This document shows, piece after piece, positions 2,316 to 22,114 of a DNA stretch of 22,114 nt (the first letter of the stretch is position 1; each line of letters begins with the position of its first letter). The stretch lies in UHGV virus genome UHGV-0246545. One strand, 5' to 3'. Made by a program: the position numbers and the translations under genes. Below the pieces are notes generated by a model. That model searched no databases. It saw nothing but the letters and a program-made list of their open reading frames with translations, and was not told where the DNA came from. This stretch comes from a virus.

Positions 2316-3179
2316 ATGGAAAGAGGTGTGGTATTTAGTGCATGCGAATTACTTAAAACCGAGGATGGAAAAGGCATCCGTACAGGTAAATGGATTAGTC
2401 AATTAGAAATAAACTATCTATGTCTTTATTGGGATAAACTAGTTTCACCCACTAATAATATTATACATACAGCATTAAATAACGAGGATGAATTAGAAAA
2501 ATGTGGATTGCTAACCAGACCTGTATATAGACATCATGGTTGTTTTGATGGCCAATATATGGCTGATTTTTATGCTGAAACTCATGCCAAAACAATAGAT
2601 ATACTTAGGCATGCGGATTCTTCTGTCGATTGGCGCATGCATTTTTTAAGTGACCAAATAAACTTGGTGCCTGAATTATCTAGAACCTCAGAAGTGATAC
2701 GTTTTGAGCTAGCAAATTTATTACCCGTTCCCACAGAAGATGTGCACCTACATGATATTCTTGATTTCAAGGAAAGAAGAAAACCTGAATTAATCGCTTT
2801 ACATGAATATCTTGATGAGCTTTACTTGGAAATAAAACGTTCTGGTGATATCAATCTTCAGAAAGCAAAAGCTCTTTCTAATCTTAAACAAGCAATAAAG
2901 GATATTGAACGCTTAAATTGTGAAGTGTGGAAAAGTCCAATAAAATTTAGCATCTCTACTTCCTTTGAGTTCGATTTTTCACAAATATTTAGTCTGGCGG
3001 GAACTGTTTTATCTATGTCAGTAGATTATCCTTATAATGTTATTGGAGGGGTAAGTAGTTTTGTTTATTTTTTGGGAGGATGCATAAAAATAAAGCCACA
3101 ATTTCAACAAGTGTTATCATTAGGTAATGATAAATTAGTTTACATAAGCAAAGGAAAATCGGAGGGTATTATTTCCTGA
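2316..3179 (+). CDS. Hypothetical protein, 287 aa, AT-rich moron; no recognisable family
   Basis: Long ORF with good AGGAG Shine-Dalgarno and an in-frame stop 18 nt upstream of the ATG. Visibly lower GC than flanking phage genes. Helical or coiled-coil-like central region and hydrophobic C-terminal stretch; no signal peptide. Confidence 0.7.
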   Translation: MERGVVFSACELLKTEDGKGIRTGKWISQLEINYLCLYWDKLVSPTNNIIHTALNNEDELEKCGLLTRPVYRHHGCFDGQYMADFYAETHAKTIDILRHADSSVDWRMHFLSDQINLVPELSRTSEVIRFELANLLPVPTEDVHLHDILDFKERRKPELIALHEYLDELYLEIKRSGDINLQKAKALSNLKQAIKDIERLNCEVWKSPIKFSISTSFEFDFSQIFSLAGTVLSMSVDYPYNVIGGVSSFVYFLGGCIKIKPQFQQVLSLGNDKLVYISKGKSEGIIS

Positions 3180-3255
3180 TTTTTGATTCTCATAATCAAT
3201 GAATGTTTTTTGTGAATATACTTATTTTAACCCTATAAATAATCAAGGTAATAAA

Positions 3256-3606
3256 GTGCCTCCTCGTATCCCGAAAGCCTGCCGTGCTCGAGGTTGCCGT
3301 AATACCACCACAGACCCGTCAGGCTACTGCGAAAGCCACAAAAGCGAAGGCTGGAAGCAATACAAGCCAGGCCAGTCCCGACACCAGCGCGGTTATGGTG
3401 CGAAATGGGATGTTATCCGTGAACGTGTGCTCAAGCGTGACAAAGGCCTGTGTCAGTTGTGTTTGCGTGCCGGTGTGGTGCGCGAGGCGAAAACCGTTGA
3501 CCACATCATCCCTAAAGCACATGGCGGCACTGATGCCGACAGTAATCTGCAGAGTCTGTGCTGGCCGTGTCATAAGGCGAAGACGGCCCGTGAACGGTTG
3601 AAGTAA
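3256..3606 (+). CDS. HNH endonuclease, terminase-associated (phage packaging HNH)
   Basis: HNH motif region …CQLCLRAGVVREAKTVDHIIPKAHGGTDADSNLQSLCWPCHKAKT… immediately upstream of the small terminase. Probable GTG start at 3256 (AAGG Shine-Dalgarno, GC-rich sequence begins here); the ORF track ATG at 3199 adds an AT-rich extension with no Shine-Dalgarno, which I consider less likely. Confidence 0.8.
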   Translation: MPPRIPKACRARGCRNTTTDPSGYCESHKSEGWKQYKPGQSRHQRGYGAKWDVIRERVLKRDKGLCQLCLRAGVVREAKTVDHIIPKAHGGTDADSNLQSLCWPCHKAKTARERLK

Positions 3607-3731: not shown

Positions 3732-4226
3732 ATGGCTGGAACGGCGGGGCGTTCCGGGCGTCGCCCCAAGCCAACGGCGCGCAAGGCGCTGGCCGGAAAC
3801 CCCGGCAAGCGAGCCCTGAACAAAGATGAACCTGTTTTTACGCCCATCAAAGGGGTTGAGCCACCGGAGTGGTTCGCAGAAGAAAATCTCCCTCTCGCTA
3901 CGATCATGTGGCAACTGACAACCAAAGAACTCTGCGGTCAGGGCCTGCTGTGCGTGACTGACCTCGCGGTGCTTGAGCGGTGGTGCGTAGCCTATGAGTT
4001 CTGGCGACGTGCCGTGAAAAATATTGCCAGCCAGGGCAACACCATCACCGGTGCAATGGGCGGTATGGTCAAAAATCCGGAGCTGACCGCCAAGAAAGAA
4101 CAGGAGTCCGAGATGAGCAGCACGGGGGCAATGCTCGGACTCGACCCCAGCAGCCGCCAGCGTCTGATTGGCCTGGCGGGGCAGAAGAAAGCCACTAACC
4201 CGTTTCTGAAAATTATCGAATCATGA
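3732..4226 (+). CDS. terS: Terminase small subunit (P27-like family)
   Basis: N-terminus [34 protein letters not shown] is typical of P27-family small terminases. AGGAG (3719-3723) 8 nt upstream of ATG 3732; the ORF track start at 3723 is GTG. ATGA overlap with terL. Confidence 0.85.
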
Positions 4227-5956
4227 GCCGGAAATCTTACCCCAACGTAAATGCAGCCAATCAGTATGCCCGTGATGTCGTGCGCGGAAAGATTGTGGCC
4301 TGCCAGTTTGTGATTCAGGCCTGCCAGCGCCATCTTGATGACCTGATGGCGGAAAAAAGTAAGTCGTTTCGTTACCGCTTCGACAAGGACCTGGCTGAAC
4401 GGGCCGCGAAATTTATTCAGCTGTTGCCGCACACCAAGGGTGAGTGGGCATTCAAACGGATGCCCATCACGCTGGAGCCGTGGCAGCTATTTGTGATCTG
4501 CTGTGCGTTTGGCTGGGTCAATAAAGGCACCCGGTTGCGCCGCTTCCGGGAGGTGTATACCGAAATCCCCCGTAAGAACGGCAAATCAGCAATCTCTGCC
4601 GGTGTTGCCCTGTATTGTTTTGCCTGTGATAACGAGTTTGGCGCGGAAGTGTATTCCGGTGCCACGACAGAGAAACAGGCGTGGGAAGTCTTTCGCCCGG
4701 CGCGACTGATGTGTAAACGCACACCCATGCTGACGGAAGCGTTCGGGATTGAGGTTAACGCCTCAAACATGAACCGTCCGGAGGATGGCGCGCGGTTTGA
4801 ACCGCTGATCGGTAACCCTGGTGATGGTTCATCACCCCACTGTGCGGTGGTGGATGAATATCACGAGCACGCCACCGATGCGCTTTATACCACGATGCTT
4901 ACCGGGATGGGGGCGCGACGTCAGCCACTGATGTGGGCCATCACCACCGCCGGGTACAACATTGAGGGGCCGTGCTACGACAAGCGGCGGGAAGTTATCG
5001 AGATGCTCAACGGTTCGGTACCCAACGATGAACTGTTCGGGATCATCTATACCGTTGATGAAGGTGACGACTGGACCGACCCGCAGGTGCTGGAAAAAGC
5101 CAATCCAAATATTGGCGTGTCGGTTTATCGCGAATTTTTGTTAAGTCAGCAGCAGCGTGCTAAAAATAACGCCCGTCTGGCAAACGTCTTTAAAACAAAA
5201 CACCTCAATATCTGGGTGTCGGCGCGTTCGGCGTATTTCAACCTGGTGAGCTGGCAGAGCTGCGAGGATAAATCACTGACCCTTGAGCAGTTCGAGGGGC
5301 AGCCGTGCATTCTGGCCTTTGACCTGGCGCGTAAGCTGGATATGAACAGCATGGCGCGACTTTATACCCGCGAGATTGACGGTAAAACGCATTACTACAG
5401 TGTGGCCCCGCGTTTCTGGGTACCGTATGACACGGTGTACAGCGTCGAGAAAAATGAAGATCGCCGGACAGCCGAACGCTTTCAGAAATGGGTGGAAATG
5501 GGCGTTCTGACTGTTACCGCTGGTGCGGAGGTGGATTATCGCTACATCCTCGAGGAGACCAAAGCGGCGAACAAAATCAGCCCGGTCAGTGAGTCACCCA
5601 TCGACCCCTTCGGGGCGACCGGGCTGTCGCATGACCTTGCTGATGAAGACCTGAACCCCATCACCATCATTCAGAACTACACCAACATGTCCGATCCGAT
5701 GAAAGAGCTGGAAGCGGCGATTGAATCGGGGCGCTTTCATCATGACGGCAATCCCATCATGACCTGGTGTATCGGCAACGTGGTCGGCAAAACCATTCCG
5801 GGTAACGATGATGTGGTGAAGCCTGTCAAGGAGCAGGCGGAAAACAAAATCGATGGTGCGGTTGCACTGATTATGGCGATCGGTCGGGCAATGCTCAAAG
5901 AACCCGACGATTTCCTCTCATCTCTTGATCCGGACGATGCTCTCTTAATTCTATGA
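4223..5956 (+). CDS. terL: Terminase large subunit (HK97-type)
   Basis: 577 aa. Walker A-like PRKNGKS and Walker B-like AVVDEYHEH ATPase motifs, with a C-terminal nuclease-type region. Position between terS and portal. Confidence 0.93.
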
Positions 5957-11191: not shown

Positions 11192-12671
11192 CACCATTCC
11201 GTCGAATACGCTGGTTCCGTTGTTTTATGCGGAAATGGATAACTCGGCGGCGAATACTGCACAGGACAGCGGAGCATCGCTGCTGATTGGTCATGCCAAT
11301 AACGGTGCAGAGATTGTTGCCAACAGTCTGGTACTGATGCCGTCGGCAGACTATGCACGCCAGATTTGTGGTGCGGGAAGTCAGCTGGCGCGTATGGTCG
11401 AGGCTTATCGCCAGACCGACTCGTTTGGTGAGCTGTATGTGATTGCCGTTCCTGAATCCACAGGCGCGGCGGCAACGGTTACGCTGACGGTGACCGGGGC
11501 GGCAACCGAAACCGGCACGGTGAATGTCTATGTGGGACGTACCCGCGTGCAGGCTCCGGTGACCAACGGCGATAACGTCACGACGATTGCCAGCAGTATC
11601 AAAGATGCCATCAATGCCGTTCCGGCCCTGCCGTTTACGGCTTCATCTTCGGCAGGCGTGGTCACACTGACCGCGCGTCATAAGGGGCTTTGCGGGAATG
11701 AAATTCCTGTCAGCCTCAATTACTACGGCTTTGGTGGGGGCGAAGTGCTGCCAGCGGGCGTACAGATTGCCGTGGCGACGGGGACCGCCGGAACGGGTGC
11801 TCCGGTTCTCACCGGCGCGGTGGCTGCAATGGCGGATGAGCCGTTTGATTATATCGGCCTGCCGTTCAACGACACGGCCTCCGTTAACACGCTGGTGACC
11901 GAGATGAACGATACCAGCGGTCGCTGGAGCTATGCGCGTCAGCTGTATGGTCATGTGTATACGGCAAAGATCGGCACGCTGTCAGAACTGGTGACCGCAG
12001 GTGACCAGTTTAACCAGCAGCACATTACCCTGGCGGGGTACGAAAAAGAGACCCAGACGCCTGCCGACGAACTGGCGGCAAGCCGTACCGCCCGCGCAGC
12101 GGTGTTTATTCGCAACGATCCGGCACGTCCCACGCAGACCGGTGAGCTGGTGGGTATGCTGCCTGCGCCGAAGGGGAAACGGTTCACGATGACCGAACAA
12201 CAGACCCTGCTGTCTCATGGCGTGGCAACGGCGTATGTCGAAAGCGGGGTACTGCGCATTCAGCGTGATGTCACCACGTACAGGAAAAACGCTTACGGGG
12301 TTGCGGATAACAGCTACCTAGACAGTGAGACTCTGCATACCAGCGCGTATGTACTGCGCAAACTGAAATCCGTCATTACCAGTAAGTACGGGCGTCACAA
12401 GCTTGCCAGTGACGGTACCCGCTTTGGTCCCGGTCAGGCGATTGTCACCCCGGCGGTGATCAAAGGGGAACTGCTGGCAACCTACCGTCAGCTTGAGCGT
12501 GCGGGGATCGTGGAAAACTACGCACTGTTTAAGCAGTACCTAGTTGTGGAGCGTGATGCCAGCGATCCGAACCGCCTGAACACGCTGTTCCCGCCTGACT
12601 ATGTTAACCAGTTGCGTGTCTTTGCCGTGGTTAACCAGTTCCGTCTTCAGTATTCAGAGGAGTCCGCATAA
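11175..12671 (+). CDS. Tail sheath protein (Mu gpL-like, contractile tail)
   Basis: 498 aa, size and sequence character of Mu-like sheath proteins; immediately followed by tube and chaperone genes with TAATG-type overlaps. Confidence 0.88.
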   Translation: MTISFNTIPSNTLVPLFYAEMDNSAANTAQDSGASLLIGHANNGAEIVANSLVLMPSADYARQICGAGSQLARMVEAYRQTDSFGELYVIAVPESTGAAATVTLTVTGAATETGTVNVYVGRTRVQAPVTNGDNVTTIASSIKDAINAVPALPFTASSSAGVVTLTARHKGLCGNEIPVSLNYYGFGGGEVLPAGVQIAVATGTAGTGAPVLTGAVAAMADEPFDYIGLPFNDTASVNTLVTEMNDTSGRWSYARQLYGHVYTAKIGTLSELVTAGDQFNQQHITLAGYEKETQTPADELAASRTARAAVFIRNDPARPTQTGELVGMLPAPKGKRFTMTEQQTLLSHGVATAYVESGVLRIQRDVTTYRKNAYGVADNSYLDSETLHTSAYVLRKLKSVITSKYGRHKLASDGTRFGPGQAIVTPAVIKGELLATYRQLERAGIVENYALFKQYLVVERDASDPNRLNTLFPPDYVNQLRVFAVVNQFRLQYSEESA

Positions 12672-13027
12672 TGGCCCGTATCGGGGGAACCTGTTATTTC
12701 AAAATTGACGGTCAGCAGCTATCGCTGACCGGCGGCATTGAGGTGCCCATGAACAGGACGGTCAATGATGACATCATCGGCCTGGACGGTTCAGTGGACC
12801 GCAAGGAAACTCACCGTGCGCCTTATGTCAAAGGGACCTTCAAGGTGCCGAAGAATTTTCCGGTGAGCAAAATCACCTCGTCTGATGAGATGACCATCAC
12901 TGCCGAGCTGGCGAACGGTCAGGTCTATGTACTGTCGTCTGCCTGGCTGCACGGCGAAGCGAACCATAATGCCGAAGAAGGCACGGTCGATCTTGAGTTC
13001 CACGGTGAAGAAGGGGATTACCAGTAA
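12671..13027 (+). CDS. Tail tube protein (Mu gpM-like)
   Basis: 118-aa ORF directly after the sheath, start overlapping the sheath stop. Typical size for a contractile-tail tube protein. Confidence 0.82.
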   Translation: MARIGGTCYFKIDGQQLSLTGGIEVPMNRTVNDDIIGLDGSVDRKETHRAPYVKGTFKVPKNFPVSKITSSDEMTITAELANGQVYVLSSAWLHGEANHNAEEGTVDLEFHGEEGDYQ

Positions 13028-13296
13028 TGAAAGAGCTTGAGTTAAAGAAACCGATTACCGCTCATGGCGAGACACTCTCCGTACTGGAGTTTGATGAGCC
13101 CACCGGGAAAGATGTCCGCGAGCTGGGGTATCCCTACCAGATGAATCAGGATGAGTCCGTCAGACTTCTGGCGCATGTGGTGTCGAAATACATTGTGCGG
13201 CTGGCGAAAGTGCCGCAAAGCTCTGTCGACCAGATGTCTCCGGCAGACCTGAATGCAGCGGCGTGGCTTGTGGCTGGTTTTTTCCTCCAGGCCTGA
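13027..13296 (+). CDS. Tail assembly chaperone (0-frame product)
   Basis: 89-aa acidic ORF between tube and tape measure. Contains a slippery heptamer near its 3' end (see frameshift feature). Confidence 0.75.
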   Translation: MKELELKKPITAHGETLSVLEFDEPTGKDVRELGYPYQMNQDESVRLLAHVVSKYIVRLAKVPQSSVDQMSPADLNAAAWLVAGFFLQA

Positions 13297-13445
13297 CGGC
13301 TGAATACCTCACTGATCGCTTCTTTGACTGCGCCAGCTACTGGCGCATTAATCCCTTCGAATTGCTGAATATGCCGATCAGTGAAATTCCCTTGCTGGTC
13401 AGTCAGGCAAACAGGATAGAGCAGGAGAAACGCACACATGGCTGA
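13027..13445 (+). CDS. Tail assembly chaperone, -1 frameshift-extended isoform (shift at T_TTT_TTC, 13278-13284)
   Basis: Slippery heptamer TTTTTTC lies 10 nt before the 0-frame stop. The -1 frame is open from there to 13445 (…PPGLTAEYLTDRFFDCASYWRINPFELLNMPISEIPLLVSQANRIEQEKRTHG) and ends 8 nt inside the tape measure start. Confidence 0.55.
13278..13284 (+). promoter_or_regulatory. Slippery heptanucleotide T_TTT_TTC for programmed -1 ribosomal frameshifting
   Basis: In the 0 frame the codons are GGT TTT TTC, so the heptamer fits the X_XXY_YYZ pattern, and the -1 frame is open downstream. Confidence 0.55.
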
Positions 13446-15270
13446 ATTTGAGCTTAAGGCGTTGATCACCGGTGTCGACAGGCTTTCTCCCGCGCTGTCG
13501 AAAATGCAAAAGAAAATCCGGGGATTTAAACGCCAGGCGGAAGAAGCGTCACAGGGTGGGCTGGCGCTTGGTGGAGGACTGGCAGCGGGGCTGACGCTTT
13601 CCCTGAAATCTTATGCCGATCAGGAAAACGCCGCCACCGGGCTGAAAGTCGCCATGATGGATGCGAACGGCGAGGTTGGAAAGAGCTTTCAGGACATCAA
13701 TAAACTGGCTATTGGCCTGGGTAACCAGCTACCCGGTACAACGGCTGATTTCCAGAACATGATGCAGATGCTGGTGCGTCAGGGGATCCCGGCAGAAAAC
13801 ATTCTGGGTGGTGTGGGTAAAGCGACAGCTTATCTTGCGGTACAACTGAAAAAAACACCGGAAGCGGCTGCTGAGTTTGCTGCAAAGATGCAGGATGCTA
13901 CCGGAACGGCGTCAGAAGACATGATGGGGCTGTTCGACACTATCCAGAAGGCGTTTTATCTGGGCGTTGACGATACCAACATGTTGTCCTTCTTCACTAA
14001 AACCAGTTCTGTTCTGAAGATGGTGAACAAGGACGGTCTTCAGGCTGCACAGAGCCTTGCCCCCATCAGCGTCATGATGGATCAGATGGGGATGAACGGG
14101 GAGTCGGCAGGTAATGCCCTGCGAAAAGTTATCCAGTCCGGATTAAGCGTTAAGAAAATCAGGGACGTCAATAAAGTTATGGCCCGTCAGAAACTCGGGG
14201 TACAGCTCGATTTTACTGACGGCAAAGGAAGTTTTGGCGGTCTTGATAACATGTTTAAGCAACTGGCAAAGCTGCGAAAACTTACCGACGTTAAGCGAAC
14301 AGGTGTACTTAAGGCAATATTTGGTGATGATGCCGAAACCCTTCAGGTGGTCAATGCGCTGATCGATAAAGGAAAGGATGGTTACGATCAGATCCAGCAA
14401 AAGATGAATAAACAGGCCAGCCTGAATAAACGTGTTCAGGCACAGCTTGGTACGCTGTCCAACCTGTGGGAGGCAATGACGGGGACCGCAACTAACGGCC
14501 TTGCGGCTATTGGCGGCGCATTTTCTGGTGACGCCAAAAATATCACGCAATGGCTGGGGGAGTTGGGGGAAAAATTCACGAAGTTTGCGGATGAAAATCC
14601 CCGGGTTATTCGCGGCGTCGTCGGGCTTGCTGCCGGTCTTGCGATTCTGAAACTGGGATTGATGGGCGTGGGCAGTGCCATCAGCATTGTCAGCAGGATC
14701 ATGTCGATGACGCCGATTGGCATGATTGCGACGGCGATAGCCCTGGCTGCGGGATTAATTATCACTAACTGGGATGTTGTCGGACCTTATTTCAAGAAGC
14801 TCTGGGAAACCATTGGTCCTTATTTTGAGGCTGGCTGGGAACTCCTTAAGAAAGTTTTTGCCTGGTCGCCGATGGGGATGGTGATCAATAACTGGGGGCC
14901 GGTTGTTAAGTGGTTTCAGGATATGTGGGACAAGCTGAAGCCAATTATTGAGTGGTTTACCGACAGTTCCGGTGACACGGTCGATGCCATTAACTCTGCG
15001 CAGTGGGGCGCGGGTGCTTATGATGCTTATGGGACGGGAATACCGGCACGGGGATACACTCCTTATCCGGCGGTGGATCCGGCTCAGGCAAACAACGCCT
15101 CCGATGCCACAGGCTCGAATCCCTTCATGATTAATAAAGCTACCGCGCCAAAAGTTGATGGTGAGATCAAGGTATCATTTATAAATATGCCACCAGGTAT
15201 GCGGGTTACGGAAACACGCTCCAGTGGCATTGATATAAATCACGATGTTGGCTATACCCGATTTTGGTAG
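13438..15270 (+). CDS. Tail tape measure protein
   Basis: 610 aa, alanine- and glycine-rich with predicted long helical regions and a C-terminal hydrophobic stretch. Located after the frameshifted chaperone. AGGAG Shine-Dalgarno at 13423-13427. Confidence 0.9.
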   Translation: MAEFELKALITGVDRLSPALSKMQKKIRGFKRQAEEASQGGLALGGGLAAGLTLSLKSYADQENAATGLKVAMMDANGEVGKSFQDINKLAIGLGNQLPGTTADFQNMMQMLVRQGIPAENILGGVGKATAYLAVQLKKTPEAAAEFAAKMQDATGTASEDMMGLFDTIQKAFYLGVDDTNMLSFFTKTSSVLKMVNKDGLQAAQSLAPISVMMDQMGMNGESAGNALRKVIQSGLSVKKIRDVNKVMARQKLGVQLDFTDGKGSFGGLDNMFKQLAKLRKLTDVKRTGVLKAIFGDDAETLQVVNALIDKGKDGYDQIQQKMNKQASLNKRVQAQLGTLSNLWEAMTGTATNGLAAIGGAFSGDAKNITQWLGELGEKFTKFADENPRVIRGVVGLAAGLAILKLGLMGVGSAISIVSRIMSMTPIGMIATAIALAAGLIITNWDVVGPYFKKLWETIGPYFEAGWELLKKVFAWSPMGMVINNWGPVVKWFQDMWDKLKPIIEWFTDSSGDTVDAINSAQWGAGAYDAYGTGIPARGYTPYPAVDPAQANNASDATGSNPFMINKATAPKVDGEIKVSFINMPPGMRVTETRSSGIDINHDVGYTRFW

Positions 15271-15298
15271 CCAGGATTCCCCTCACATGTATTGCTGG

Positions 15299-15326
15299 TT
15301 GTAAGTCATAAATAGAGTGATAGAAT
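15299..15326 (+). promoter_or_regulatory. Candidate sigma70 promoter with extended -10 (TTGTAA 15299-15304, 16-nt spacer, TGaTAGAAT 15318-15326) for the tail-module moron
   Basis: Found by eye in the AT-rich gap between the tape measure stop and the moron ATG. -35 is 4/6 and -10 is 5/6 to consensus, with a TG extension. Confidence 0.35.
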
Positions 15327-15361
15327 TAATGCACATTTAGAAAAATGTTAATAGGCGAAAA

Positions 15362-15892
15362 ATGAAAGGCTATATCACAGCAAGTGTAATTCTTGGAGCA
15401 GCGGCTATTTTTTCATCTCTCATAATCTCTGGCAACATCTCCTTTAAAGATGAACATATTATTCAGTTATCTGGAGGAGCCATAAAACTTGGTGATGTTT
15501 ATAAAGAAAATAAATTGATAAGTGCAAAGATTATTTTTCCAGATAATCAGGGTGAACAGATTCTTGTTGTCGACGGCAATCCTGAAAACTTTAAGGAGGA
15601 TTTTCAGGAGAAATTAAATAAAGTAATAAAAACTTTAAATGCGTCAAAGAAAAAAGATGAAGAGAAAGTTAGCCTGGATAATTTAAGTGTTATTGAAGAG
15701 TCTAAACTAGAGCTCGTTTCTGCGGTGCGTTACTCTGCTCAGTATGTTCCTATGTTTACTCTGACGCTGGACAAAAAAGAAATTACCATGCCTAAAAATA
15801 CGGTAATATTTCCATTTGCCAGCGATGAAACAGCTAAGTATTTAAATGAACAACAGCAAAAGTATAAAGATTCGTTGTTTCTGACTCGCTAA
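15362..15892 (+). CDS. Hypothetical secreted or membrane-anchored protein, 176 aa, AT-rich moron
   Basis: N-terminal hydrophobic segment ITASVILGAAAIFSSLIISG (signal peptide or signal anchor, no lipobox Cys), lysine-rich body. Visibly AT-rich, flanked by its own promoter-like sequence and a strong terminator. Confidence 0.7.
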   Translation: MKGYITASVILGAAAIFSSLIISGNISFKDEHIIQLSGGAIKLGDVYKENKLISAKIIFPDNQGEQILVVDGNPENFKEDFQEKLNKVIKTLNASKKKDEEKVSLDNLSVIEESKLELVSAVRYSAQYVPMFTLTLDKKEITMPKNTVIFPFASDETAKYLNEQQQKYKDSLFLTR

Positions 15893-15910
15893 TTAATAAA
15901 ATTCATTACA

Positions 15911-15940
15911 AGGCCACCTTCTAATAGGTGGCTTTTTTAT
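15911..15940 (+). terminator. Rho-independent terminator after the tail-module moron
   Basis: Perfect 7-bp stem GCCACCT (15913-15919) / AGGTGGC (15926-15932), 6-nt loop, followed by TTTTTT (15933-15938). Confidence 0.75.
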
Positions 15941-15953
15941 TTTCGGAGTGTAT

Positions 15954-17282
15954 ATGACGTGGAAAGACAGGCTTCAGGATGCGTCATTTCGAGGTGTGCC
16001 GTTTAAGGTTGAAGAAGAAAGTGCGGGAACTGGTCGCCGTGTGGAAACACATGAATACCCGAACCGCGACAAGCCCTATACCGAAGATCTGGGAAAAGTC
16101 ACTTTCCGCCCGTCCATCACAGCTTATGTGGTGGGAGATGACTGCTTTGACCAGCGCGATCGCCTGATTGAAGCGCTGAATAAACCCGGTCCCGGCACGC
16201 TTGTCCACCCGACATATGGTGAGCTGAAAGTCTGTGTTGACGGGGAAGTTCGGGTCAGCACATCGAAAAGTGAAGGGCGTATTGTCCGCTTTGACCTGAA
16301 GTTTGTCGAAGCAGGAGAACTCTCTTACCCCACATCAGGTGCGGCGACGGCGCAGACGCTGATGTCATCCTGTTCTGCACTGGATGACTGCATCAGTGAC
16401 AGCTTCAGCGGTTTCAGTATCGATGGTGTGGCGGATTTCGTGCAGAACGACGTTATCGGTAATGCCAGCATAATGCTGGGGTATGTTTCTGATGCGATGA
16501 AAGTGGTGGATTCTGCCGTATCGGATGCCGCCAGGCTGTTGCAGGGGGATATCTCGGTACTTCTGCCGCCGCCATCGTCAGGCAAAAATTTCGTTGAGCA
16601 GGTGCAGAAAATGTGGCGTACCGGGAAACGCCTTTATGGTAACGCCAGCGACCTGGTCACCATGATCAAAACGCTTTCCGGTGTCAGCCTCGGCAGCGAT
16701 CTGCAACCGCGCGGCGTCTGGAAAACGGACAGTAAAACCACCGCCACGGCTACGCAGCAGCGTAATGTGGTTGCCAGCACCCTTCGTACGACCGCAATCA
16801 GCGAAGCGGCGTATGCCATCACCCGATTGCCTGCGCCAACAACTTCCGCGGTGATGCAGAATTCCGCAGTGGGGCAGGCAACAACACCTGCGCAGAGCAC
16901 TGGCTGGCCTTCCGTCACGCATCCGGCACTGAACAATGCACCGGCGGTGAAAAACACGGTTGACCTGCCGACGTGGGAAGAACTGACTGACATTCGCGAC
17001 ACACTGAATACGACAATTGATAAGGAGTTGTCCCGTACAACCAGTGATGCGCTGTTTCTGGCGCTGCGCCGGGTGAAAGCAGATCTGAATGCGGATATCA
17101 ACACGCGCCTTGAACAGTCTGCACGGATCATTCAGCGCACACCGGATGAGGTTTTACCCGCGCTGGTGCTGGCGGCGACCTGGTTTGATAACGCGGCGCG
17201 TGACGCGGACATTATCCGGCGTAATGCAATTACGCATCCCGGCTTTGTGCCGGTGATCCCTCTGAAGGTGCCAGTGCAATGA
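15954..17282 (+). CDS. DNA circulation protein (Mu gpN-like)
   Basis: N-terminus MTWKDRLQDASFRGVPFKVEEES… is typical of Mu N-like DNA circulation proteins. GGAG 5 nt upstream of ATG 15954; the ORF track start 15948 is GTG. Confidence 0.85.
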   Translation: MTWKDRLQDASFRGVPFKVEEESAGTGRRVETHEYPNRDKPYTEDLGKVTFRPSITAYVVGDDCFDQRDRLIEALNKPGPGTLVHPTYGELKVCVDGEVRVSTSKSEGRIVRFDLKFVEAGELSYPTSGAATAQTLMSSCSALDDCISDSFSGFSIDGVADFVQNDVIGNASIMLGYVSDAMKVVDSAVSDAARLLQGDISVLLPPPSSGKNFVEQVQKMWRTGKRLYGNASDLVTMIKTLSGVSLGSDLQPRGVWKTDSKTTATATQQRNVVASTLRTTAISEAAYAITRLPAPTTSAVMQNSAVGQATTPAQSTGWPSVTHPALNNAPAVKNTVDLPTWEELTDIRDTLNTTIDKELSRTTSDALFLALRRVKADLNADINTRLEQSARIIQRTPDEVLPALVLAATWFDNAARDADIIRRNAITHPGFVPVIPLKVPVQ

Positions 17283-18358
17283 ACGACAATGTCACGCTAC
17301 GGGTAAATGGCCGGGAGTGGAATGGCTGGACATCGGTACGCATCGGTGCCGGTATTGAACGGCTGGCGCGGGATTTCAGTGTGGAGATCACCCGACAGTG
17401 GCCGGGAGATGAGGGTATCACCACGCTTCAGCCGCGCATTAAAAACGGTTCAAAAGTGGAGGTGCTGATTGGTGATGAGCTGGTGATCACCGGCTGGGTG
17501 GAGGCGACGCCCGTTCGTTACGATGCCCGTTCGGTCAGCACCGGTATTGCCGGACGCAGTCTGACCGCTGACCTGATTGACTGTGCAGCCGAACCGACAC
17601 AGTTTAACGGACGATCGCTGGTACAGATTGCGCAGGCGCTTGCTGCGCCTTTCGGCATTGAGGTGGTGAACAACAGTGCGCCGTCGGGGGTTATTCCTGA
17701 TGTCCAGCCTGATCACGGCGAAACGGTGATTGAGGTGATCAACAAAATACTCGGTCAGCAGCAGGCACTGGCTTACGACGACCCGCACGGCAGGCTGGTG
17801 ATTGGCGGTATTGGCTCAACGCGGGCACATACCGCGCTGGTACTTGGGGAAAATATCCTTTCCTGTGATACGGAGAAGAGTATCCGGGAGCGGTTTTCTG
17901 TTTACCAGGTGGCGGGGCAGCGTGCCGGAAACGACGATGATTTCGGTGAGGCCACCACCACCGCGCTGCGGGCCCGCACAGAGGACGCATTTATTGCCCG
18001 TTACCGTCCGATGTATATCAGGCAGACAGGGCAGGCTACGGGGGCAGGCTGTATTGCCCGTGCGGACTTTGAAGCCCGACAACGGGCGGCGCGGACGGAT
18101 GAAACCACCTATGTGGTTCAGGGCTGGCGACAGGGTAACGGTACGCTGTGGCAGCCCAACCAGCGGGTGATTGTCTTCGATCCGGTCTGTGGTTTCGACA
18201 ATACCGAACTGCTTGTCTCGGAAGTCACGTTTACTCAGGACCAGAACGGCACCCTGACGGAAATCCGTGTCGGCCCACCTGATGCTTATCTGCCTGAACC
18301 CGAAGCCCCCGGCGCGCGGAAAAAGAAAAAAGCCAGAGTACAGGAGGACCCGTTCTGA
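17279..18358 (+). CDS. Mu gpP-like tail protein (baseplate hub; P2 gpD / late-control-D family)
   Basis: 359 aa; follows the DNA circulation gene with an overlapping start, as in Mu (N then P). Confidence 0.82.
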   Translation: MNDNVTLRVNGREWNGWTSVRIGAGIERLARDFSVEITRQWPGDEGITTLQPRIKNGSKVEVLIGDELVITGWVEATPVRYDARSVSTGIAGRSLTADLIDCAAEPTQFNGRSLVQIAQALAAPFGIEVVNNSAPSGVIPDVQPDHGETVIEVINKILGQQQALAYDDPHGRLVIGGIGSTRAHTALVLGENILSCDTEKSIRERFSVYQVAGQRAGNDDDFGEATTTALRARTEDAFIARYRPMYIRQTGQATGAGCIARADFEARQRAARTDETTYVVQGWRQGNGTLWQPNQRVIVFDPVCGFDNTELLVSEVTFTQDQNGTLTEIRVGPPDAYLPEPEAPGARKKKKARVQEDPF

Positions 18359-18906
18359 TGAGGACGATTGAAGCCATGCAGCGACAACTTCTCGGCCTGA
18401 TTGGGCGGGCAGTGGTGAAAAGCATCAGTGCCGCCACGAAATGTCAGACCGTGGATGTGTCCCTGATTGCCGGTGAACCCAAAGCCGGGGTTGAACATCT
18501 TGAACCCTACGGTTTTACCGCAAGGGCAAACAGCGGTGCGGAAGCGGTGGTGTTGTTTCCGGATGGCGACCGTTCTCATGCGGTGGTTGTTACGGTGTCG
18601 GACCGGCGCTACCGCCTGAAAGGGCTGCAGACGGGTGAGGTGGCGGTCTATGACGATCAGGGGCAGTCCGTGACGCTGACCCGGGAGGGGATCGTGGTGG
18701 ACGGTGCAGGTAAAACGATCACGTTTCGCAATTCACCTAAAGCACGTTTTGAAATGGACCTAGAAGTGACAGGACAGGTGAAAGACCTGTGCGACTCCAG
18801 CGGCACCACCATGTCAGCGATGCGGCTTGCCTATAACGGGCATCGTCACAGAGAGAACGGTCAGGGCAGTAACACCGACAAACCTGATAAAGCGATGGAG
18901 GCATGA
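18358..18906 (+). CDS. Baseplate assembly protein V / central spike (Mu gp45-like)
   Basis: 182 aa; ATGA overlap with the preceding gene. Position and size match Mu gp45 / P2 V-type baseplate spikes. Confidence 0.82.
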   Translation: MRTIEAMQRQLLGLIGRAVVKSISAATKCQTVDVSLIAGEPKAGVEHLEPYGFTARANSGAEAVVLFPDGDRSHAVVVTVSDRRYRLKGLQTGEVAVYDDQGQSVTLTREGIVVDGAGKTITFRNSPKARFEMDLEVTGQVKDLCDSSGTTMSAMRLAYNGHRHRENGQGSNTDKPDKAMEA

Positions 18907-19331
18907 TGGAACTGTGGCTGACGGTGAACGGTAAACGCACCTGCGCCAGCGCACCGCTGGATCCGCTGACCCGCGCCGTGGTGATTTCCCTGTTTACCTG
19001 GCGGCGGGCGGAGCCTGATGACAACGCCGACGTCCCGATGGGATGGTGGGGGGATACCTGGCCTGCGGTACAGAATGACCGTTACGGCTCCCGACTGTGG
19101 CTGCTTCAGCGCAGCAAACTGACCAATCAGCTGGTGCAGACGGTAAGGGGGTATATCCGCGAATGCCTGCAATGGATGATTGATGACGGCGTGGTGTCCC
19201 GTATTGATCTGGATATCCGCCGCACCGGGATTAATGAACTGGGTAACAGTATCACTCTCTGGCGTCGTGACGGACCGGTAATGATTTCTTTTGATGATCT
19301 GTGGAGTGCGATAACGCATGGCGGACAGTGA
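18903..19331 (+). CDS. Mu gp46-like baseplate protein
   Basis: 142 aa, overlapping start and stop with neighbours. Conserved position between V-like and J-like baseplate genes. Confidence 0.78.
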   Translation: MMELWLTVNGKRTCASAPLDPLTRAVVISLFTWRRAEPDDNADVPMGWWGDTWPAVQNDRYGSRLWLLQRSKLTNQLVQTVRGYIRECLQWMIDDGVVSRIDLDIRRTGINELGNSITLWRRDGPVMISFDDLWSAITHGGQ

Positions 19332-20376
19332 ATTTCAGCGCCCGACGCTGGCAGAAAATATCAGTATGCTCCGTAACGATTTATTCGCCAGGCTGGACGT
19401 CAGCGACACGCTCCGGCGCATGGATGAAGACGTGCGGGCAAAGGTGTATGCGGCGGCGCTGCATACGGTTTACGGGTACATCGATTATCTGGCAATGAAC
19501 ATTCTGCCTGACCTGTGCGATGAGTCCTGGCTGGCGCGACATGCTGCGATGAAACGGTGTCCGCGCAAGGGGGCCACGGCTGCCAGCGGGTATATGCGCT
19601 GGGAAGGTGTCAGCGATGGCCTGAAGGTGACCGCCGGGAGTGTTATTCAGCGCGATGACCTGGTTCAGTACACGGCAACTGCCGATGCAACCAGCTCCGG
19701 TGGTGTCCTGCGCGTGCCGATCGCCTGCTCAAGTGCAGGCGCGGTCGGTAACGCTGACGACGGTACGTCATTAATCCTGGTCACGCCGGTTAATGGTCTG
19801 CCGTCTTCCGGCGTGGCAGATACCCTGACAGGTGGATTTGATACTGAAGAGCTGGAAACGTGGCGCGCCCGCGTCATTGAGCGGTATTACTGGACGCCTC
19901 AGGGCGGGGCTGACGGGGACTATGTCGTCTGGGCTAAAGAAGTGCCCGGCATTACCCGCGCATGGACATACCGTCACTGGATGGGAACGGGAACTGTCGG
20001 TGTGATGATTGCCAGCAGTGACCTGATTAATCCCATTCCGGAAGAATCAACGGAAACGGCAGCAAGACAACATATCTGGCCACTGGCCCCGGTGGCAGGC
20101 TCTGATTTGTATGTATTCAGGCCGGTGGCACATACGGTGGATTTTCATATCCGCGTGACGCCGGACACACCAGAAATACGGGCTGCCATTACCGCGGAGT
20201 TGCGTTCGTTCCTGCTGCGTGATGGTTATCCGCAGGGAGAACTCAAGGTATCGCGTATCAGTGAGGCGATTTCCGGTGCGAACGGGGAATACAGCCATCA
20301 GTTGCTTGCACCGGTGGACAATATCTCCATTGCGAAAAACGAACTGGCGGTACTGGGGACGATTTCATGGACGTGA
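19318..20376 (+). CDS. Baseplate J-like protein (Mu gp47-like)
   Basis: 352 aa; conserved gene order gp45-gp46-gp47-gp48 upstream of the tail fibre. Confidence 0.85.
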
Positions 20377-20951
20377 CAAACGATGATTACATCCGCCTGT
20401 TATCGGCACTGTTGCCGCCCGGTCCGGCGTGGTCAGCCAGCGATCCGGCGATTGCCGGTGCGGCACCGTCATTAACCCGTGTTCATCAGCGTGCGGATGC
20501 CCTGATGCGGGAGCTGGATCCGCGCACCACCACTGAACTGATAAACCGCTGGGAGCGTCTGTTCGGTCTGCCGGATGAATGTATTCCGGCGGGAACGCAG
20601 ACCCTTCGCCAGCGTCAGCAACGGCTGGATGCGAAGGTTAACCTGGCGGGCGGCATCAACGAGGATTTTTATCTTGCACAGCTTGCTGCCCTGGGCAGAC
20701 CAGATGCCACCATCACGCGATACGACAAAAGCACTTTCACCTGCTCATCGGCCTGTACTGACGCGGTGAATGCGCCGGAATGGCGGTATTACTGGCAGGT
20801 CAACATGCCAGCCACCACCAACTCCACCTGGATGACATGTGGCGATCCCTGTGATTCCGCACTGCGTATCTGGGGTGACACCGTTGTCGAGTGTGTGCTT
20901 AACAAACTCTGCCCGTCGCATACCTACGTAATTTTTAAATATCCGGAGTAA
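20367..20951 (+). CDS. Mu gp48-like tail protein (DUF2313; e14 YmfQ-like)
   Basis: 194 aa, cysteine-containing C-terminal part, immediately upstream of the tail fibre. Confidence 0.82.
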
Positions 20952-20954
20952 TCC

Positions 20955-21443
20955 ATGCATCGTATAGACACGAAAACCGCGCAGAAGGATAAGTTCGGCG
21001 CGGGTAAGAACGGTTTTACCCGTGGTAACCCCCAGACCGGCACGCCTGCCACCGATCTGGATGATGACTACTTTGACATGTTGCAGGAGGAACTTTGCAG
21101 CGTGGTGGAGGCATCCGGTGCCAGCCTGGAGAAGGGGCGGCACGACCAGTTACTTATCGCACTTCGCGCGCTGCTGTTAAGCCGCAAAAATCCGTTTGGC
21201 GATATCAAATCGGACGGCACGGTGAAAACGGCTCTCGAAAACCTTGGTTTGGGAGAAGGCTCTGCATTACCTGTTGGTGTGCCTGTTCCGTGGCCCTCAG
21301 CCACTCCGCCAACAGGCTGGCTAAAATGCAACGGAGCAGCTTTTTCTGCTGAAGAATACCCGGAACTGGCAAAGGCTTACCCGACAAATAAATTGCCTGA
21401 TTTACGTGGCGGCTTTATTCATCAGGCAGCCCTCACGATATAA
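20955..21443 (+). CDS. Tail fibre protein, N-terminal (constant) portion; ORF ends after only 162 aa
   Basis: N-terminus [47 protein letters not shown] is characteristic of enterobacterial prophage side tail fibres. Contains the fibre motif [44 protein letters not shown] and stops 8 codons later. Confidence 0.8.
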
Positions 21444-21473
21444 TTAAAGGCAATGTTACGAGGACGGTTTTCG
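21390..21473. repeat. Tail-fibre junction repeat, copy 1 (A+B parts contiguous)
   Basis: A part 21390-21420 matches 21533-21563 at 26/31 positions by hand alignment. B part (21415-21473) is clearly similar to 21701-21759. Confidence 0.7.
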
Positions 21474-21496
21474 TTTGCAGTTGGAACAATTCTTGA

Positions 21497-21750
21497 AGCA
21501 TCAAGGCCAATCACTTTTGGGTACCAACGTTAAAATTACCTGATTTACGCGGTGAGTTTATTCGCGGCTGGGATGATGGGCGAGGCGTGGATGCGGGAAG
21601 GGGCATCTTAAGCATACAGGGGTGGTTAACTGGAAGTCATTATCATAATATTCGGTCATGGCCTGCCTGTACGGCAATAAGATCATTATTTAATATCGCG
21701 TTATTCATTATGCGGCTCTCACAATATAATTGAAGGCAATATTGCGTGGA
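21497..21750 (+). pseudogene. Tail-fibre fragment without start codon (…KLPDLRGEFIRGWDDGRGVDAGRGILSIQG…), probable pseudogene remnant
   Basis: Open frame bounded by stops, with no ATG near its 5' end. Contains the canonical tail-fibre motif DLRGEFIRGWDDGRGVDAGR. It is out of frame with the downstream B-part copy (about 143 nt extra relative to copy 1). Confidence 0.4.
21533..21563. repeat. Tail-fibre junction repeat, A-part copy 2
   Basis: AAATTACCTGATTTACGCGGTGAGTTTATTC versus AAATTGCCTGATTTACGTGGCGGCTTTATTC at 21390-21420. Both encode KLPDLRG(G/E)FI. Confidence 0.7.
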
Positions 21751-21759
21751 CGGGTTTCA
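21701..21759. repeat. Tail-fibre junction repeat, B-part copy 2
   Basis: TTATTCATTATGCGGCTCTCACAATATAATTGAAGGCAATATTGCGTGGACGGGTTTCA versus 21415-21473. Encodes …IHYAALTI-stop, paralleling the …IHQAALTI-stop end of the fibre ORF. Confidence 0.7.
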
Positions 21760-21902
21760 TTCCCCCCTGAGGACTCCGTTCTGTATTGACTGGAAAATTT
21801 ACCATTAATCGCCCCTTCGCGGACGGCGTTATCTGTCGACAACAGACTATCCCCCCCTCTGTCATTTGGCACCAATACCGTGTTATCCCACGCGTCCCAT
21901 GA

Positions 21903-22114
21903 CCGAATATATATATTTCAGAGTCAACTGAATATCTTGCTGTGGGTGTTGGTATTCCGGCTAATTCCTGTTTAGATGCCCCAGGCGCACATAAATCTGG
22001 CTATGCTATTCGCCGTTCGGAGGATTTAAATTCATGGGAGTATGCGCCAGACCATCGTGGTGAAACCGTCTATAGCACTGACACGGGAAACACCGAAGAA
22101 ATCACGGCGCTGGG
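21903..22114 (+). CDS. Partial ORF running off the window end; possibly a tail-fibre variable segment or tail-fibre-associated gene
   Basis: 70 codons open to the window edge (…GYAIRRSEDLNSWEYAPDHRGETVYSTDTGNTEEITAL…). No in-frame ATG; a GTG at 21942 is possible. Phage-like base composition. Confidence 0.3.

Follow-up and report, generated by a model that had tools for sequence, protein, structure and literature searches.

A decayed tail-fibre cassette in what is probably the left part of an e14-type Pin-invertible segment

Results

The end of the window probably belongs to a Pin-invertible P segment

The end of the window (the whole 22,114-nucleotide stretch of UHGV virus genome UHGV-0246545 that was analysed) is probably the left part of a Pin-invertible "P segment" of an E. 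coli prophage of the e14/SfV type with a Mu-like baseplate. The stretch from 21386 to 22114, which an earlier sequence-only reading had flagged as a rearranged or switchable host-range region, is a damaged copy of a switch that is already known, the e14-type Pin switch, with a decayed cassette; it is not a new type of switch. A decayed fibre locus was one of the two options that this reading had offered, and it fits the flagged stretch.

That the locus is of the Pin/Gin/Cin class, the invertible tail-fibre regions with which it had been compared, is borne out by a 26-bp Pin crossover site, pixL (Table 1), although the sequence-only reading had found no canonical site of this length. The pixL 26-mer occurs once in the window, at codons ALENLGLGE of the fibre gene, and matches the site in stfP of K-12 e14 and that of strain S51 at 26/26 positions. 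It includes the 16-nt inverted repeat TTGGTTTGGGAGAAGG, published as flanking the e14 P segment (PMC12529663); repeats TTGGTTTGGGAGAAGG and CCTTCTCCCAAACCAA are reported to flank a P segment of 1797 bp (PMC12529663; see also PMC4272514). One of the K-12 P-segment inverted repeats lies in stfP at ENLGLGEG and the other adjoins pinE, in agreement with these papers (PMC12529663, PMC4272514). In the inverted orientation the pix site reads …TTCTCCCAAACCAACGTTT….

About 130 bp separate pixL from the flagged interval, which is downstream of it. Because the crossover site is at the ALENLGLGE codons, the variable part of the fibre takes in the KLPDLRG collar. The invertible segment thus does not have its left end at the collar junction, where it had been proposed to lie.

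The setting of the locus agrees with that of known prophages. Positions 12000–21400 are 99.5% identical to E. coli prophages, S51 among them. In S51, the one prophage inspected, the 99.5%-identical stretch is followed in order by a fibre gene (256 aa), tfa, tfa′(−), Sv′(−), and pinE. A second relative, contig L008, encodes an identical YmfQ protein and has the same gene order, with a resolvase-family gene in last place, so that each of the relatives inspected has an invertase gene (pinE in S51, the resolvase-family gene in L008). The order in S51 and L008 is the organisation of the K-12 e14 P segment, stfP-tfaP-tfaE-stfE-pinE. The late region in the window encodes an Rz lysis protein, an HNH endonuclease, and a small terminase; the annotation of the large terminase, portal, capsid, sheath, tube, and tape-measure genes is taken from near-identical prophages. 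A scan of 20800–22114 for promoters and terminators gave none.

No further pix-like site was found in 21258–22114 (857 bp), either with a relaxed core pattern or at up to 8 mismatches in 26. In K-12, S51, and intact locus L002, the second site is 1.85–1.89 kb from the first, and by analogy a second pix site and a pin gene are probably to be expected ∼1 kb past the window end. It is by comparison with these relatives that the segment may be considered invertible today, its far end and invertase being predicted beyond the window. If pixR and pin are indeed there, a flip of the whole segment would exchange the damaged cassette for the one at the far end.

The variable part is a mosaic of pieces from three cassettes

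When compared by blastn with intact relatives, the fibre locus resolves into five pieces that derive from three different cassettes and alternate in orientation (Table 1). The fibre and tfa remnants are 100% identical in nucleotide sequence to annotated genes. An alignment to tail-fibre and tail-fibre-assembly genes had been suggested as a check, and by this measure the remnants are genuine.

Table 1. Features of the fibre locus at the end of the window
Feature	Position	Strand	Description
YmfQ	20367–20951		Preceded by Mu-like baseplate genes, followed by the fibre gene
Truncated tail-fibre ORF	20955–21443	+	162 aa; constant N-terminus, crossover site, Collar domain, 7 junk codons, stop
Piece A	20955–21409	+	Constant part, pixL, and collar of cassette A; identical to L015 up to GATTTACG (21405)
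pixL	21232–21257	.	26-bp Pin crossover site CTCTCGAAAACCTTGGTTTGGGAGAA; constant/variable boundary within the fibre gene
Collar part of cassette A	21258–21409	+	...KLPDLRG, now fused to the constant part; identical to L007/L015 up to GATTTACG
Piece X′	21410–21523	−	Antisense fibre end (last 33 codons and stop) and first 13 nt of tfaE (ATGAATAAAGCCG)
Piece B	21524–21661	+	5′-truncated third cassette, PTLKLPDLRGEFIRGW...SHYHNIRSW; 138/138 to L005 5001–5138
Piece B″	21662–21910	−	Remainder of cassette B (IRSWDAWDN...RAA-stop) and tfa codons 1–15 (MNNAILNNDLIAVQA), inverted in place
Piece C	21911–22114	+	tfa from codon 30 (YISESTEYLAVGVG...), runs off the window; 204/204 to L005 5413–5616
14-nt perfect inverted repeat ATATTCGGTCATGG, left arm	21648–21661	+	
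14-nt perfect inverted repeat ATATTCGGTCATGG, right arm	21897–21910		

The closest relative, L015, is identical to the window through the constant part and the collar to 21405 and then continues into an intact cassette. Among complete E. coli genomes, the best match to the collar of cassette A is 97.6%; in the top-listed match at this value (L007), all four differing bases lie at the 3′ end, next to the first junction, J1. The 114 bp of X′ match positions 4001–4114 of L004, the Sv′/tfaE region of a P2-like prophage, at 114/114 positions, and the piece is matched at ≥99% in 72 E. coli records.

The parent match of the remaining pieces (B, B″, and C) is L005, a P1-like phage-plasmid locus. Piece B is without a pix site, without the first ∼45 collar codons, and without a start codon; in intact loci, a pix-like site is found 137 bp upstream of the point where B begins. 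B″ matches L005 5125–5373, read as its reverse complement, at 249/249 positions. In comparison with L005, this 249-bp block has been inverted in place, 14 nt (5125–5138) have been duplicated, and 39 nt (5374–5412) are missing. Cassette B and tfa are colinear and intact in both L005 and L002, where Tfa has 200 aa with a Caudo_TAP domain (PF02413) at residues 78–199, and alignment to L002 gives the same picture of an in-place inversion. The first junction copy had been read as a deletion derivative of the second; the two come from different cassettes, the former P2-like (114/114) and the latter P1-like (138, 249, and 204 nt).

The left arm of the 14-nt inverted repeat ATATTCGGTCATGG corresponds to L005 5125–5138, which is present in a single copy in the intact cassette. 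The 14-nt duplication thus accounts for the perfect inverted repeat and marks the in-place inversion. An inverted repeat of 14 nt, of any sequence, was obtained in 38/2000 shuffles. The perfect repeat ATATTCGGTCATGG is missing from the sequence-only reading.

Damage to a cassette is in itself nothing rare in this fibre family. In finished genomes, a cassette of L005 contains an internal deletion and a frameshift, and both the fibre gene and tfa of L007 are frameshifted.

The repeated junctions are conserved cassette motifs

Two direct repeats are present in the flagged stretch. The first, 21390–21420 and 21533–21563, has 84% identity (26/31), as described earlier for this pair; its second copy, at the collar junction, reads on as RGEFIRGWDDGRGVDAGRGILSIQG and has no start codon, which also agrees with the earlier description. 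The second, 21412–21475 and 21698–21761, has 81% identity over 64 nt.

Every cassette in the family has a collar motif (KLPDLRGEFIRGWDDGRG, KLPDLRGEFI) and a C-terminal motif that ends in a stop codon overlapping the ATG of tfa. Each motif is doubled here because the window has parts of two cassettes that carry it. Both copies of the C-terminal motif are on the minus strand, so IHQAALTI-stop and IHYAALTI-stop are antisense read-through. The second repeat had been described as a copy of the fibre 3′ end: the repeat exists, but it codes on the minus strand and IHYAALTI is not its product. Both repeats stem from conserved, homologous stretches of tail-fibre cassettes and are not due to chance.

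No working fibre is predicted from the cassette fused to the constant part

The early end that had been reported for the fibre ORF is confirmed: it encodes 162 aa and then stops. It does so after 7 junk codons because the ORF enters antisense DNA after the collar. A Pfam domain search of the product found a Collar domain (PF07484) at residues 108–155 (E 6e-15, 55 bits versus a cut-off of 24) and no receptor-binding domain after it. Its homologues, 200–275 aa long, have a C-terminal part that is absent here, and their match to the query is limited to its first 96%.

The chaperone gene is affected as well. Codons 1–29 of tfa are inverted or lost in the sense orientation and its start codon is absent; what is left is a start-less frame that extends from ∼21912 to the window end, where such a frame had been noted.

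The start-less fragments had been regarded as alternative cassettes, a role that their structure does not allow. X′ is a C-terminal stub of 33 codons, X′ and B are both unbounded by pix sites, and each fragment is without its 5′ or 3′ part. None of the fragments within the window provides an in-frame alternative variable part for the constant part, and the window does not contain a complete fibre C-terminus together with an intact tfa. Were the block flanked by the 14-nt arms turned back, B would regain its frame, while the ∼45 first codons and the site would still be missing and tfa would still be frameshifted. A functional fibre from a simple inversion inside the window is ruled out because B is incomplete and tfa is frameshifted after such a re-inversion. 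From the genes as they stand, we predict that the prophage of the source strain cannot make a working fibre in its present orientation, in which this cassette occupies the expressed position.

The four junctions are not products of Pin

A TTTATTC match (7 shared bases) between the collar (GAGTTTATTCG) and the antisense start of tfa (GGCTTTATTCAT) is in register with junction J1 (21409/21410), which lies 4 nt to its left. When the product was compared with its parents, J2 (21523/21524), J3 (21661/21662), and J4 (21910/21911) were found to be blunt, with zero microhomology. The junction tables, in which the product was aligned with each parent, showed no similarity to pix at any of J1–J4.

Exchange by serine recombinases is conservative and occurs at a 2-bp core, with which a gain or loss of bases is incompatible. 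At J3 and J4, the sole inversion with a known parent (L005), a gain of 14 nt and a loss of 39 nt were measured. We conclude that Pin did not make the junctions and cannot reverse them, because they do not resemble pix and the rearrangement of B was not conservative.

Other derivations of the mosaic were considered and rejected. One was a native "RGGFIRGW" variant of the collar, which would make J1 an 11-nt microhomology joint; this variant is absent from complete E. coli genomes. Another was that a canonical P segment gave rise to the mosaic by Pin inversion or by homologous recombination between inverted collar or C-terminal motifs. No one- or two-step path from a canonical P segment gives the observed order and blunt joints.

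The arrangement is absent from the collections searched

In BLAST searches of 5,426 complete E. coli genomes, PLSDB plasmids, and GenBank phages, 0 records covered ≥80% of the region. Exact searches of viral contigs returned no match to any of J1–J4, and there was likewise no exact match to J1 and J3 in genome contigs or to J2 and J3 in metagenome contigs. The positive control, the intact B junction, was present in 17 viral contigs. Exact-protein look-up of the truncated fibre protein and of a 55-aa minus-strand ORF gave no record.

Discussion

Origin of the scrambled cassette

We infer that illegitimate events, in which the invertase was not involved, made the four junctions, because the junctions are blunt or near-blunt and unlike pix, and because the rearrangement of B gained 14 nt and lost 39 nt. 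The order of the pieces could be followed along the unit "collar – middle – C-terminus – tfa" as a passage forward, a jump ahead to the other strand, a passage backward, and another jump, the whole twice over. Candidate processes would be a series of template switches from one strand to the other at a stalled fork and break repair with capture of fragments. The blunt joints fit neither of them cleanly. Template switching driven by microhomology does not usually leave blunt joints.

An assembly or library artefact is an unlikely source of the arrangement, if one that deserves to be weighed. The last ∼700 bp would in that case be a chimeric extension of the contig end, made from fibre cassettes of co-resident elements, possibly through fold-back chimeras formed during amplification, for example of the multiple-displacement type. 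Besides an e14-like prophage, the co-resident sources would be a P1-like plasmid and a P2-like prophage. No collection searched has a second copy of the arrangement, and its pieces are 100% identical to sequences that are normally on three different elements; mis-joins in a De Bruijn graph, however, need shared k-mers, and J2–J4 share 0 bases and J1 only 7. Strand alternation is the typical form of displacement-amplification chimeras, and here the strand alternates at every junction, with all four within 500 bp at the window end; yet four chimeras with identical junctions over 500 bp would require many concordant reads. Contigs of this prophage in draft genomes mostly break at or just after pixL (L010–L014), and the window itself ends within the multi-copy tfa gene, whereas the deleted and frameshifted cassettes of L005 and L007 are real features of finished genomes.

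We consider it improbable that the scramble, if real, records an invertase-independent process that moves cassette pieces between co-resident prophages and P1-like plasmids, or that the locus is a collar-only ON/OFF switch instead of an A/B switch. If the former is true, transfer of pieces by fold-back or template-switch copying, or by break repair with fragment capture, would be one route to mosaic fibres. If the latter is true, a truncated, collar-only fibre in one orientation might affect the cell surface or other phages; an effect on the cell surface or other phages has been reported for the chimeric StfE2 of e14 (PMC12529663).

An active multi-cassette switch of the Min/p15B type, in which the start-less fragments would be alternative C-termini that an invertase can fuse, is very unlikely, and for the fragments inside the window it is largely refuted. 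Relatives L005, L018, and L021 do have arrays, with up to 8 pix-like sites and a cassette spacing of ∼440–570 bp (most often 514–517 bp), and in an e14-like prophage, L001, a pix-like site stands before each of two tandem cassettes, but the window has zero pix-like sites after pixL at up to 8 mismatches in 26. Moreover, B is without the site and the ∼45 first codons that are found in every intact cassette, X′ is only a stub, and the 14-nt gain and 39-nt loss in B do not agree with conservative exchange.

Use of secondary "quasi" sites in the cassettes by Pin or a co-resident Din-family invertase, followed by small deletions, is hardly credible: quasi-site use is documented for Cin, and cassette B at YPTLKLP (…ACCCAACGTTAAAA…), which J2 abuts, resembles the centre of pixR (CCAACGTT), but AA-core exchange predicts GGGTAAACGTT and the observed joint is GGGTACCAACGTT, a mismatch for which Pin action at this J2 pseudo-site was dropped, half-site similarity is absent at the other three junctions, and the duplication and loss of bases need extra ad hoc steps.

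Implications

Beyond annotation, the importance of the damaged cassette, in which we believe illegitimate events placed the junctions, is small. In this prophage family, which is very common in E. coli, Pin switches at ALENLGLGE and not at the collar motif KLPDLRG. For readings made from DNA alone, the locus is a caution that repeated "junctions" can be nothing but motifs conserved among cassettes and taken from the wrong strand. The damage, if real, is one more example of fast cassette decay and of piece exchange between prophages and phage-plasmids.

Comparison with known systems

The resemblance to an R64-type shufflon, with its Rci tyrosine recombinase and sfx repeats, is superficial and consists of a constant N-terminus and alternating fragments. 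The recombinase belongs to a different family, and shufflon segments begin, rather than end, at the segment borders. No short repeat of the shufflon type was found at each fragment border; the repeats in the window are cassette homologies and the one 14-nt inverted repeat made by duplication.

With the Min region of p15B and P1-like phage-plasmids the window shares DNA directly, as cassette B and tfa are 100% identical to one cassette of a P1-like phage-plasmid. The P1-like phage-plasmids with cassette B have ≥6 pix-like sites and 514-bp cassette repeats. In contrast to these arrays, the window has a single site, and its fragments are unbounded by sites.

In the Mu G segment with Gin and the P1 C segment with Cin, a constant fibre part contains an in-gene crossover site and is joined to promoterless variable parts, each with its own chaperone. 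The locus in the window shares this logic, but its fibre family and the position of its site differ. The Mu G and P1 C segments are intact two-state switches, whereas the rearrangements in the window are not invertase products. The logic of the P1 C segment and Cin has been described (PMC6906374).

The e14 P segment of K-12 with PinE differs from the locus described here. e14 is a remnant, whereas the late region of the window prophage is complete, and in the window four non-pix junctions scramble the cassette at the expressed position. The second site and pin are absent from the window. The two loci have the same collar-type cassette and Tfa family and the same upstream YmfQ and baseplate genes, and in both a constant fibre N-terminus ends at an identical 26-bp site at ALENLGLGE (PMC12529663, PMC4272514).

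A probable intact counterpart of the fibre gene

In an ENA metagenome scaffold (L015, positions 2577-3299), the constant part and the collar of the fibre gene are identical to those of the window, and the constant parts of both contain the rare variants LLIALR and TVKTAL. Unlike in the window, the sequence downstream of the collar in this scaffold is an intact cassette (…GVDAGRQLLSSQGDAIRNIEGFADGG…). L015 is likely to show the fibre gene of the window in its undamaged form.

Draft and Logan contigs that encode an identical YmfQ protein, the product of the gene just upstream of the fibre gene, were also found (L010-L014). These contigs end within codons 96-105 of the fibre gene, at the pix site or shortly 3' of it, a break point that is expected from short-read assembly of an invertible or repeated cassette.

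Other open reading frames in the window

The 176-aa ORF at 15362-15892 had no Pfam match and is retained by relatives, whose annotations list it as hypothetical. At the left end of the window, the 201-aa ORF looks truncated, because its match is confined to the first 170 of the 293 positions of the KAP P-loop NTPase profile. Nucleotides 1-100 of the window had no match in the closest E. coli relatives.

Positions and context of two ORFs in the window
ORF	Position	Strand	Profile match	Flanking genes
201 aa	90-695	-	KAP P-loop NTPase	
176 aa	15362-15892	+		Tape-measure and DNA-circularisation genes

Comparison with other invertible fibre loci

In the e14-like prophage of E. coli 2022E04-002 (L001, 5333-7836), two collar cassettes lie in tandem, and a pix-like site precedes each of them. 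The tfa gene of this prophage is adjoined, tail to tail, by fibre and baseplate genes that belong to a P2-like prophage; these genes lie on the opposite strand and have their own pix-like sites. This locus looks as if two prophages had been joined via their invertible fibre segments.

Arrays resembling the multiple-inversion region Min of plasmid p15B are present in the P1-like phage-plasmid p98222 (L005, 4209-8268), in which one cassette (4740-4949) is frameshifted and has an internal deletion, and in viral contigs L018, L019, L021, L028, and L032. Each of these arrays contains six to eight pix-like sites, and their cassettes are spaced ∼440-570 bp apart.
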